Part shown: piece after piece, positions 15,229 through 17,425 of the stretch
Layout of the letters: each line of letters begins with the position of its first letter
Numbering within the stretch: the stretch's first letter is position 1
Assembly: GCA_016218725.1 (NCBI GenBank)
Contig: JACRDB010000135.1
Span: forward strand, 1-32,025
Source: Deltaproteobacteria bacterium
Lineage (GTDB): Bacteria; Myxococcota_A; Polyangia; Polyangiales; Ga0077539
DNA: 32,025 bases
Direction of reading: 5' to 3'
Position numbers and translations under genes: made by a program
Notes under the pieces: generated by a model
The model's input: only the letters and a program-made list of their open reading frames with translations
What the model was told of the DNA's origin: nothing
The model's database searches: none

Positions 15229-15918
15229 CTAACGGCGCCCGCCCGCCGCGGTGGCGTTCTTGCGGGCGTGGATGTAGCGCTCCAGGGACGCGCCCTGGCG
15301 GGGCTGGAACCAGGCGTCCGTGAGCCTCAGGTCCCGCACGTGGTCCAGCCGGAAGGAGCGATAATCCTGCCGCAGGCGGCAGTAGGCCAGGAAGCTCCAG
15401 TGGTCCGCGGTGTAGAAGACCGCCAGGGGTTCGACCTCCCGGGGCACCTCGACGTTCTCGCCCTCGCGGCGATAGCGGAGCGCCACGACCCTCCGCGTCG
15501 CGATGGCCTCCTGGAGGAGCCATCGTAGCTGTCGGACGGCCTCCGGGGTCGGCGGGACGAAGACCGCCACCGGCTCGGCCACACCCACCGCACGGTCCAG
15601 GCGCTTGAGCACCTTGCGGGCACCGTCCGCGGTGGTGCCGTCGCCCTCACGCACCAGGGTCCGAGCGCCCTCGCGCACCAGGGCGAGCTCCACCGGCGTC
15701 AGGAGCACCGGCGGCGGCATGGCGCCGTCATTGGCCGCCGCCGCGGTCTCCGGGGCGGCGGCCTCCGCCAGCGCCCCGGCCTCGCGCAGGGCCCTTAAAT
15801 CCCTGCGTACCGCGGCCAGCGGGAGGACCAGGGCCACGGCGATCCGGTGGGGGTCCTGGGTGCCCGTGGACTGCACGTAACCCAGCACGCGCAGGGCTCG
15901 TTTCAACGTGTTTTCCAT
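15229..15918 (-). CDS. WYL-domain transcriptional regulator (N-terminal wHTH + WYL ligand-sensing domain)
   Basis: C-terminal 229 aa of track ORF 15229..16605, starting at ATG 15916..15918 (MENTLKRALRVLGYVQ...) with GAGGG just upstream. HTH region: RIAVALVLPLAAVRRDLRALREAG. WYL core: RRVVALRYRREGENVEVPREVEPLAVFYTADHWSFLAYCRLRQDYRSFRLDHV. The upstream part of the track ORF is an out-of-frame overlap with the sigma gene. Confidence 0.8.
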   Translation of the reverse strand: MENTLKRALRVLGYVQSTGTQDPHRIAVALVLPLAAVRRDLRALREAGALAEAAAPETAAAANDGAMPPPVLLTPVELALVREGARTLVREGDGTTADGARKVLKRLDRAVGVAEPVAVFVPPTPEAVRQLRWLLQEAIATRRVVALRYRREGENVEVPREVEPLAVFYTADHWSFLAYCRLRQDYRSFRLDHVRDLRLTDAWFQPRQGASLERYIHARKNATAAGGRR

Positions 15919-15949
15919 ACCCTCAAGGTACGTCCGAGGAGGCCCCGGG

Positions 15950-15988
15950 ACACGGTCCCGGTGACATACTCTGTCATCGGGACCGTGT
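15950..15988. promoter_or_regulatory. Imperfect inverted repeat (17-nt arms, 5-nt spacer): candidate operator upstream of the WYL regulator gene
   Basis: ACACGGTCCCGGTGACA-tactc-TGTCATCGGGACCGTGT, 16/17 complementary. Centre is about 50 bp upstream of the WYL ATG (15918) and about 75 bp downstream of the sigma stop (16043). No U-tract follows on the minus strand, so it is not a canonical intrinsic terminator. Confidence 0.4.
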
Positions 15989-16042
15989 GGGGTTTTGTGG
16001 GGGAATGTGGGGTGGGATGGAGAGGTGAGGGCGCTCCCGGGC

Positions 16043-17425
16043 TCAGTCCCGGAGCTGCTTGCGGATCTTGCAGAGGGCCTGCTCCTGGAGCTGGCGGATG
16101 CGCTCCCGGGAGAGGTTGTACTTGTCGCCGATCTCCTTGAGGGTGAGCTCCTCCTCGTCGTCGAGGCCGAAGCGCCACCGGAGGATGCGGGCCTCCATGG
16201 GCGACAGGGTGTCGAGCAGGCGGCGCACCTCCTGGGACCAGGAGGTGTTGACCACGTGCTCGAAGGGCGAGGCGAGGTTCTCGTCCTGGAGGAAGTCAAT
16301 GAACTTCCGGCCGTCCTCGTCGTTGACGGGGCGGTCCAGGGAGAACGGGGTCTCGGCCCAGTCCTTCTGGATGCGCTCGAGCTTCTCCGCGGCGATGCCG
16401 GTCTCGTTGGCCAGCTCCTCCACGGAGGGCTCCCGGCCCTCGCGGGCGGTGATGAGCTGCGTGGCGCGCTGGACGCGGTTGTACGTGTCCAGCATGTGCA
16501 CGGGGATGCGCACCGCCCGGCCCTTGTCGGCCAGGGCCCGGGAGATGGCATGGCGGATCCACCAGCTCGCGTAGGTGCTGAACCGGTAGCCCCGGGTGTG
16601 GTCAAAGCGCTCCACGGCCTTGATCAGGCCGATGTTGCCCTCCTGGATGAGGTCAATCAGCGGCATGCGCCCGCGGTTGTAGCGCCGCGCGATGGACACC
16701 ACGAGCCGGAGGTTCGCCGCCACGAAGCGGTTCTTCACCCGGAAGACGGCCTCGCGCCCGGCGCAGACGCCCTCCAGGTAGCGCTTGAAGCCCGCGGACA
16801 GCACCATGCCCGGCTCGTCGGTCTCGTCCTCCAGGTCGTCCGGGCCCCGGGCGATGCGCCCGAGGTCCTCCTCCACGGCCTCGATGAAGAGCCGGTCGGC
16901 GTCCAGCTCCCGGAGCTTGCGCGAGAGGCTGGTGACCTCCGCGTCCCAGCGGACCTGGGCGCGCTTGTCCATGCGGCTGCGGGCCTTGCGGAAGTCCCGC
17001 ACGAGCCTCCGGAGCCGCTCGAGCTCCGGGAGCTCCACGGGCTCCGCCAGGTCCGTCAGGCACTGCTCCACCACCCGCAGGACGTGCTCCGCGGCGGGTG
17101 GGTACGACAGCGCCGCGGACCAACGGTCCAGCTCCGCCTGCTCGAAGTCCTTGGCCGCGCTGACCTCCTCCGCGGGCTCCATCACGGGGTGCACCGCCAT
17201 GTCCCGGAAGTACCGGGCAAGGGTGCCCTCCGCGAGGTCGTCCTCGGCGGGAGTCACGAGGCCCTCGGCGGCGATCTCCGTGAGCTCCGACTCCTGCGGT
17301 TCGGCGTCCCCGAAAGTCGTCGTAGTGGTCGGCGTGGCCGAAAGGGTCGCCGCTGCGGCAGGCCGCAGGGTCTCCCTCTCGTCGGTCAGCACCTTGGCGT
17401 CGTTGCGCTTCACCATGGGACTCAT
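16043..17425 (-). CDS. RpoD-family sigma-70 factor (group 1/2-like), about 460 aa from ATG 17425
   Basis: Region 2: [55 protein letters not shown]. Region 1.2: [24 protein letters not shown]. Region 4.2: [32 protein letters not shown]. The track ORF starts at GTG 17677, but that 84-aa extension is low-complexity and basic. ATG 17423..17425 ([11 protein letters not shown]) is preceded by GGGGGAGG; an alternative ATG is at 17416. Confidence 0.85.

Follow-up and report, generated by a model that had tools for sequence, protein, structure and literature searches.

WYL-domain regulators are increasingly recognized as sensors of nucleic acids and nucleotides in the response to DNA damage and phage. 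Among the described members, DriD (PDB 8tp8, 9pfq) is a WYL activator of Caulobacter crescentus, and the DriD site used experimentally is ATACGACAGTAACTGTCGTAT, i.e., GACA-N5-TGTC (PMC12340889). The actinobacterial DNA-damage activator PafBC (PDB 6sj9, 7p5x, 9fnd) is reported to bind beside the -10 box, where it stands in for a -35 box, a mode called “sigma adaptation” (PMC8635444). BrxR and CapW are WYL repressors of BREX and CBASS, and short CRISPR-associated regulators with a helix-turn-helix (HTH) and a WYL domain are covered by a PADLOC profile (PDLC01457). Here, we report a WYL-domain regulator gene (wyl) that lies directly downstream of an RpoD-like sigma-70 gene, with a conserved operator-like sequence between the two, in a window of 32,025 nucleotides (nt) (contig JACRDB010000135.1, assembly GCA_016218725.1, 72% GC, annotated as a Deltaproteobacteria metagenome-assembled genome (MAG)). 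With moderate confidence we read wyl as encoding an autoregulated factor whose DriD-type operator would directly precede the -35 box of a leaderless promoter, and which would control wyl and probably the downstream genes. The features on which this reading is built are the following.

15229-15918, minus strand: WYL-domain transcription regulator gene, wyl, 229 amino acids (aa) (Pfam, PADLOC, AlphaFold2, Foldseek).
15960-15978, minus strand: predicted conserved operator core, GATGACAGAGTATGTCACC (alignment of 11 loci; family consensus GTGACAGAGTATGTCAC).
15925-15930, minus strand: -10-like hexamer TACCTT (TAnnnT), 6 nt before the wyl ATG (motif-anchored alignment).
15948-15953, minus strand: weak -35-like hexamer GTGTCC, overlapping the right hairpin arm (motif-anchored alignment).
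15950-15988, no strand assigned: long inverted repeat with 17-nt arms at 15950-15966 and 15972-15988, 16/17 complementary, with a 5-nt loop (inverted-repeat search, RNA fold).

On the minus strand the sigma-70 gene is followed, in this order, by a spacer, wyl, the gene of a proline-rich (Pro-rich) protein and the gene of an SBP_bac_5 solute-binding protein (SBP). A first-pass annotation of the same DNA had listed these elements, put the gap between sigma and wyl at 124 bp on one strand and quoted a WYL core; everything it listed was located, with all genes on the minus strand, the spacer measured 124 nt, and the quoted core HWSFLAYCRLRQDYRSFRLDHV is found in the protein. It had also called the pairing of a sigma factor with a WYL sensor undescribed, and we found no description of one in the literature on WYL with sigma, WYL with Myxococcota, or myxobacterial group-2 sigmas.

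Related loci were recovered with 15–32 kb of DNA per genome. Eleven of them are distinct and bear a WYL gene, i.e., the window, L001, L003, L004, L008, L009, L010, L013, L016, L018 and L019, while L002, L005, L011, L014, L015 and L017 are duplicates; the carriers form a group of uncultured myxobacteria. The WYL family is small: a profile search of 5.8 billion proteins returned about 35 members, followed by a gap from E = 1e-43 to 1e-20, and an exhaustive hidden Markov model search of 1.84 billion cluster representatives returned 11 at E ≤ 1e-30 and then a generic WYL continuum. By these searches the family is a sharply separated clade of short proteins without the WCX domain. With the WYL alignment as query, species-representative genomes and JGI metagenomes yielded only two distant WYL proteins, L006 and L007, with neither a sigma gene nor the operator motif. 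In the public annotation of L008 the WYL gene (3280-3972) was missed and an open reading frame (ORF) on the opposite strand was called instead.

When the spacers are aligned on the gene strand, the conserved part of the palindrome is its central 17–19 bp only, with the consensus GTGACA-N5-TGTCAC; the 13-mer within the window's core spans 15963-15975 and is centred at 15969. The cores of the individual loci read as follows.

Window: GATGACAGAGTATGTCACC
L001: CATGGACAGAATATGTCCATG
L003: CATGACAGTTTATGTCC
L004: GTGGACAGGATATGTCACAC
L008: TGTGACAGAGAATGTCC
L009: GGTGACGGACAATGTCACC
L010: CTGTGACAGAGTATGTCACAG
L013: GAGTGACAGAGTATGTCACAG
L016: GTGTGACATAGTATGTCACTG
L018: GTGTGACAGAGTATGTCACAC
L019: GACTGACAGTTAATGTCACAA

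The motif stands once in every one of the distinct WYL-bearing loci (11/11), down to a WYL identity of 30%, and scores 23–36 bits with the position weight matrix (PWM). Scanned on both strands with the weight matrix, the window and eight longer loci gave no further copies above chance; the sole further PWM match (14.7 bits, at 9681 of L012) is inside a Peptidase_S13 gene, and the copy with one mismatch at window 3775-3787 also lies within a gene. The L012 locus, from a Polyangiales MAG, has a sigma orthologue of 68% identity and no WYL gene; here the SBP gene abuts the sigma gene, and no motif is found between the two. A reading of the core as a CRP-like site (TGTGA-N9-TCACA) was rejected for its wrong spacing.

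The position of the core relative to wyl is also fixed. From the core centre to the WYL ATG the distance is 51–55 nt, and to a TAnnnT hexamer (TACCTT, TATATT, TATCTT, TATTGT, TAGAGT or TATAGT) it is 39–40 nt, in the seven loci measured; in four distant lineages, read directly from their sequences, the register is unchanged, with TAGAGT, TAGAAT or TATAAT. The TAnnnT lies 6–10 nt before the ATG in all loci, which points to a sigma-70-type promoter giving a leaderless wyl mRNA, or one with a leader of at most 4 nt, and to a site centred near -52. No Shine-Dalgarno sequence for wyl was seen at a usable distance. Both of the window's hexamers, GTGTCC and TACCTT, are weak; distant relatives carry a good -35 box (GTGGAC, TTGGAC or TTAGAC) 17 nt upstream of the -10, and the promoter of L019 was called as TGGACA-16-TATAAT, 11/12. 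A sigma-54 promoter in the -35 region of L008 was considered and rejected, as it is not common to the other loci. In L013 (6941-6957), L014 (99-115), L016 (6943-6958) and L019 (6939-6954) the stop codon TGA of the sigma gene supplies the first three operator bases, and in these four the whole wyl promoter is contained in a spacer of about 56–59 nt with no terminator between the genes.

Because the core has a DriD-like half-site and spacing and strictly co-occurs with wyl, we predict the WYL protein as its most likely binder. The core could instead be read by another transcription factor, or by RNA polymerase at an upstream promoter element, since TGACA resembles a sigma-70 -35 core and the conserved spacer (GAGTAT), being asymmetric, may hold an extra oriented signal; however, no -10 box stands at a suitable distance from the core, a foreign binder would leave unexplained both the strict company of wyl and the DriD-type half-site, and we judge this very unlikely. 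Under autoregulation by the WYL protein, a dimer of the short protein would bind GTGACA-N5-TGTCAC at 15960-15978, i.e., about 52 bp upstream of the start of the leaderless wyl transcript, and from there would control its own promoter and probably also the genes of the secreted Pro-rich protein and SBP_bac_5. The first-pass annotation had proposed the whole 39-bp repeat as the autoregulatory operator. A conserved site at a fixed promoter distance before every wyl fits that proposal, and the repeat itself is present at 15950-15988 with the 16/17 complementarity given above, but the 39-bp extent is unsupported: relatives keep the central 17–19 bp, and the 17-nt arms are confined to the window and L001. 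Its placing of the operator in the spacer before wyl was likewise right in part, the site being upstream of the -35 box and clear of the promoter.

The protein itself is of a known kind. Its WYL domain (PF13280) was matched at E = 3.5e-16 and 59 bits against a cut-off of 21.8 bits, the nearest PDB match by sequence profile is PafBC (E = 2.6e-12), and the top 30 Foldseek matches in the PDB are all PafBC, DriD, BrxR or CapW, with full-length alignments to DriD and PafBC that take in the HTH; profile, structure and fold searches thus agree on the assignment. In the AlphaFold2 model, built on 41 sequences with a mean predicted local distance difference test score (pLDDT) of 87.7, the HTH consists of three helices at residues 4-46 (pLDDT > 95), followed by a disordered linker (47-74), a three-helix bundle (75-140; helices 75-91, 94-111 and 125-140), the strands of the WYL barrel (143-203) and a single C-terminal helix (212-226). 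By Pfam the HTH is weak (HTH_IclR, E = 0.006, below cut-off). It had been called a winged HTH; the HTH is borne out by AlphaFold2 and Foldseek, but no beta wing is modeled. Part of the three-helix bundle is missing in the family members P0004 and P0005.

WCX (PF25583) gave no Pfam match in the protein, which ends 26 residues past the barrel with that one helix; PF25583 is present in more distant homologues of 315–354 aa. Residues 7-216 match positions 5-210 of the 229 positions of PDLC01457 (E = 3.7e-26), and this full-length match implies that the short architecture without WCX was already known. From sequence and model together, the protein is of the PafBC/DriD/BrxR/CapW type and lacks the C-terminal WCX domain. 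Conserved basic and aromatic residues are R142, R143, Y149, R160, W174, R187 and F189; the ligand sensed by the WYL domain, predicted by analogy, would be single-stranded DNA (ssDNA) or another single-stranded nucleic acid, or a nucleotide, and would switch the control. The linker is hypervariable, disordered and gap-rich, except for the residues A-N-D, which are kept in at least 90% of 32 members, mostly within PANDG; this AND(G) motif (residues 61-66, window ~15721-15738, minus strand) stands between the HTH and the three-helix bundle and is duplicated in P0002 and three more distant family members. Please note that in the public record (P0001, 225 aa) translation begins from a TTG that lies four codons into the conserved MxNR N-terminus (window 15907-15918, minus strand).

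The outer arms of the palindrome seem to tell a different story from its core. Inverted repeats whose arms measure 15 nt or more and are 90% or more complementary occur nowhere else in the window, the spacer folds as RNA at -47.6 kcal/mol (z = -2.35), and the hairpin lies 55 nt after the sigma stop codon. Long arms are found only in the window and its closest relative, L001; L010 and L018 have arms of 8 nt and the others 4–6 nt. Between the window and L001, 9/17 pairs are invariant and five are changed on both sides with the pairing kept, so that 91% of cells are paired vs 21–41% in slid controls, while the HTH regions of the two WYL proteins are almost identical. Such compensatory changes beside a nearly unchanged HTH indicate that the arms vary independently of protein specificity and suggest that what is selected is the hairpin.

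In relatives with longer spacers, separate hairpins stand between the sigma stop codon and the operator: L004 and L008 have a strong GC hairpin with a U run behind it (RNAfold; the consensus terminator scanner missed these long bulged hairpins) and L009 and L010, by reading of the sequence, GC-rich inverted repeats with T-rich tails. No separate hairpin precedes the operator in the short spacers of the window (124 nt), L001 (80 nt) and L003 (114 nt); in the window and L001 the hairpin, of -36 to -46 kcal/mol, is built out from the operator. Since the window and L001 lack the separate hairpins of their relatives, we read the long arms as probably a terminator or 3'-stabilizer of the sigma transcript fused onto the operator, i.e., a lineage-specific extension that would turn the operator into a stable hairpin and take over the role of the separate terminator hairpins. 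In L003 a perfect 9-bp GC hairpin, CCCTCCCCC-GTGT-GGGGGAGGG (610-635), directly follows the operator and covers the -35 position of the wyl promoter; short hairpins enclosing the -35 box, shorter than that of L003, were also seen in L013 and L018. A gathering-threshold Rfam scan of the window found no known RNA family over the hairpin or the sigma leader, a tRNA being its sole match.

One may ask whether the palindrome is nothing other than such a structure, i.e., an intrinsic terminator or 3'-stabilizer of the sigma mRNA with no regulator bound to it. It is the strongest hairpin in the window, it shows compensatory changes against L001, it lies 55 nt past the sigma stop, and a terminator-like call was made on it, though on the opposite strand, where the sole T run GGGGTTTTGT lies. 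A pure hairpin, however, does not explain why the central 13–19 nt are kept as sequence where separate upstream hairpins exist and the local stem is just 4–8 bp, nor why the distance is fixed to the wyl promoter when the distance to the sigma stop ranges from 0 to about 190 nt, nor why the core is absent where wyl is absent (L012). We therefore hold a structure without a binder to be distinctly unlikely, and keep to an operator core with arms added in one lineage.

The sigma factor and its promoters comprise the following features.

16043-17416, minus strand: RpoD-like sigma-70 family gene, 457 aa (Pfam regions 2, 3 and 4; homologue motifs).
17642-17668, minus strand: promoter GGGAAC-N17-CGTA of the extracytoplasmic function (ECF) sigma type, about 225 nt upstream of the sigma start (conserved block).
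17771-17799, minus strand: second promoter-like element, TTTACA-N17-(A/C)A(T/A)G(G/T/A)T, further upstream of sigma (conserved alignment).

The sigma ORF spans 16043-17425, and its likely start is the ATG at 17416 (MVKRND), which has GGAGG 10 nt upstream and is conserved in orthologues. Sigma70_r2, r3 and r4 were matched at E = 1e-21, 5e-15 and 7e-17; the layout is a region 1.2-like part, an inserted non-conserved region and then regions 2, 3 and 4, and no region 1.1 domain was detected. The protein stays below every NCBIfam RpoD/RpoS cut-off (NF004208, 307 vs 555; TIGR02393, 272 vs 354; TIGR02997, 277 vs 384.5). In the PDB its best matches are primary sigmas at about 220 bits, with RpoS at about 164 bits, and the “RpoD” of Sandaracinus amylolyticus is 65% identical to it over an alignment that runs from region 1.2 through the insert to the C-terminus. 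The canonical RpoD/SigA stretch WWIRQAITR...ADQARTIRIPVHM is not matched: region 2.4 reads WWIRHAISR in place of the primary-sigma WWIRQAITR, and a second signature replaces ADQARTIRIP. WWIRHAISR is present in 119/120 best homologues and the second, 10-residue signature in 118/120; the -35-reading SRERIRQ motif is kept. We take the Q-to-H change to be that of E. coli Q437H, which alters the -12 preference. Identification with MzaA of the MZA anti-phage system was rejected (265 bits vs a cut-off of 800), generic sigma regions alone giving the match.

Upstream of the gene, GGGAA(C/T)-N17-CGTA is kept in 9/10 aligned sigma upstream regions (window, L001, L008-L010, L012, L013, L016 and L018), including that of L012, the locus without WYL; such a block would place an RpoD-like sigma under an ECF cascade. 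The group-2 sigma gene sigB of Mycobacterium tuberculosis (Mtb) is driven by SigE and SigH. At -12 the TTTACA-N17 element shows A or C in place of T, and it could be an autoregulated sigma promoter with altered -12 specificity. Taken together, these sequences suggest a clade-wide RpoD-like, ECF-driven and probably alternative sigma. A 187-aa gene with only a Sigma70_r4 match was seen a few genes away in L013, L016, L018 and L019. Divergently upstream of sigma, the window (17818-19521, plus strand) and L008 (3-1478, minus strand) have an ABC transporter-like gene (fused transmembrane and nucleotide-binding domains, weak Pfam matches); this insertion is confined to these two, and elsewhere a ~158-aa gene directly precedes the sigma leader.

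Is the neighborhood of sigma and wyl, then, a functional one? A sigma orthologue stands directly upstream of wyl on the same strand in all of the distinct WYL-bearing loci (11/11), across sigma identities of 61–94% and WYL identities of 30–82%; sigma evolves far more slowly than wyl. However, about 10 flanking genes are syntenic to the same degree, in the order GTPase, MacB/FtsX, a ~540-aa protein, a ~158-aa protein, sigma, WYL, SBP_bac_5, purD and purH, so inheritance alone explains the adjacency, with no call for functional coupling. The presence of sigma without wyl in L012 indicates that sigma does not need wyl. By these comparisons the adjacency is real and old, yet not independent of general synteny. 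The first-pass annotation had spoken of a dedicated sigma factor, and this is not borne out: the sigma is a member of a large Myxococcota family, evolves more slowly than wyl, is preceded by a conserved ECF-type promoter of its own and is found in L012 with no wyl beside it.

A true sigma-WYL module, in which the WYL sensor works with or on the adjacent sigma, e.g., by recruiting its holoenzyme (cf. PafBC with SigA) or by blocking sigma read-through or 3'-end formation, was nevertheless weighed. Beyond the adjacency, it would make sense of the operator that begins with the sigma stop TGA, with no terminator between the genes, in L013, L014, L016 and L019, and of the near-invariant ANDG motif in a disordered linker, free for a partner; known WYL activators are reported to touch RNA polymerase or sigma. 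Set against these are the equal synteny of the flanking genes, by which descent explains the linkage, the sigma without WYL in L012, the strong hairpins and U runs that part sigma from wyl in L004 and L008, the T at -12 of the wyl -10 boxes, as in ordinary sigma-70 promoters, and the conserved promoters that sigma has of its own. On balance we consider a module unlikely. Its more specific form, in which the WYL protein would be a dedicated ligand-sensing partner of the H/S-variant sigma, acting via ANDG docking or via a stop-codon operator that tunes the 3' end of the sigma mRNA, seems to us quite improbable; if true, sigma supply or use would depend directly on a nucleic-acid or nucleotide signal. 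The autoregulated wyl switch does without such a link, and the tie between sigma and wyl would then be one of conserved synteny.

Downstream of wyl the two further genes of the series are as follows.

14356-15174, minus strand: signal-peptide Pro-rich protein gene, 54 nt after wyl (homologue search).
12777-14354, minus strand: SBP_bac_5 solute-binding protein gene (Pfam, E = 4e-53).

The secreted Pro-rich protein, which the first-pass annotation had already placed downstream on the same strand, gave no Pfam or NCBIfam match; its homologues are found only in L003 and L008, i.e., in the window's sub-clade, and its single-sequence AlphaFold2 model (pLDDT 39) is unusable. Its gene is probably co-transcribed with wyl. 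The SBP gene had been described as an orphan, which the relatives contradict: it is the conserved downstream neighbor in every long locus, with orthologues of 44–62% identity downstream of wyl in L008, L009, L010, L013, L016, L018 and L019, and is a candidate regulated gene of the WYL protein. As the first-pass annotation had noted, no defense or repair genes adjoin wyl by Pfam and PADLOC; a defense-system reading was rejected, as PADLOC returns just generic WYL, sigma and ABC matches. Elsewhere in the window, and unrelated to the wyl locus, we observed an astacin metalloprotease fused to ricin-type lectin domains (2766-4559, plus strand) and a 901-aa HEAT-repeat protein (10115-12820, plus strand). 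An 861-aa bacterial protein resembling the Major Vault Protein (6820-9405, plus strand) shows a Major Vault Protein shoulder match at E = 5e-29 together with Vault_3 repeat matches.

With regard to the direction of control, the site just upstream of a weak -35 box in the window favors activation by contact with RNA polymerase; repression is also possible, since the promoter of L019 is near-consensus. Several points weigh against the autoregulated switch as we draw it. A site at -52 is unusual for known WYL factors, of which DriD straddles the -35 box and PafBC sits beside the -10; the near-consensus promoter of L019 should need no activator; the motif spacer shows an asymmetric conservation (GAGTA) that a symmetric dimer leaves unexplained; and the wyl transcription start sites are taken from sequence. 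For the hairpin part, the compensatory-change evidence comes from two sequences, and the gene strand 3' of the hairpin reads CCCGGGGCC, with no U tract, which speaks against a terminator. It is not our aim to claim more than these data carry: the locus looks like a fairly ordinary self-regulating switch, in which the sigma-WYL pairing is conserved and its functional coupling is not required by the data. A functional sigma linkage, if true, would be a new coupling of a small-molecule or ssDNA signal to sigma use. For the WYL subfamily, comparative sequence predicts a DriD-like GACA-N5-TGTC box, a site centred near -52 and a leaderless transcript, and the locus would serve as a test system for how a WYL factor that has no WCX dimerization domain acts when its site is placed upstream of the -35 box. 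The sigma family, widespread in Myxococcota and marked by an altered -12-reading region and an ECF-type promoter, may merit a study of its own.

Compared with known systems, the sigma resembles group 1/2 sigmas (RpoD, SigA; Mtb SigB; RpoS) in having regions 2, 3 and 4 and SRERIRQ, and some group-2 sigmas in its ECF-type upstream promoter; it differs in failing the RpoD/RpoS equivalog cut-offs, in WWIRHAISR of region 2.4 and in the undetected region 1.1. BrxR and CapW are homodimeric HTH-WYL factors on palindromes before their own operons, a plan that the WYL protein is predicted to share (fold E = 4e-6 to 1e-4), but these repressors have WCX, control defense operons and overlap the promoter, whereas no defense genes are near the window's wyl. 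With the short CRISPR-associated regulators it shares, over the full length, the architecture without WCX, and here too the setting differs, with no CRISPR-Cas or other defense locus nearby. PafBC is the closest solved relative (fold E = 3.5e-8, beside the sequence match given above) and is likewise a WYL sensor, one that acts through sigma and RNA polymerase contacts; unlike the window's protein, it is a heterodimer or fusion with WCX domains that controls about 150 DNA-damage genes. DriD has WCX, about 330 aa and no adjacent sigma gene, its site lies about 17 bp closer to the promoter, and its sequence similarity is weak (profile E = 0.014–0.016); in common are the HTH, three-helix-bundle linker and WYL domain (Foldseek E = 4e-7, 22–24% identity) and the half-site and spacing of the operator, which is a predicted one for wyl, and DriD, too, has a site at its own promoter. 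In sum, the window holds a new and rare subfamily of regulators whose kind is known and whose mechanism can be predicted by analogy, in a genomic setting that is new.

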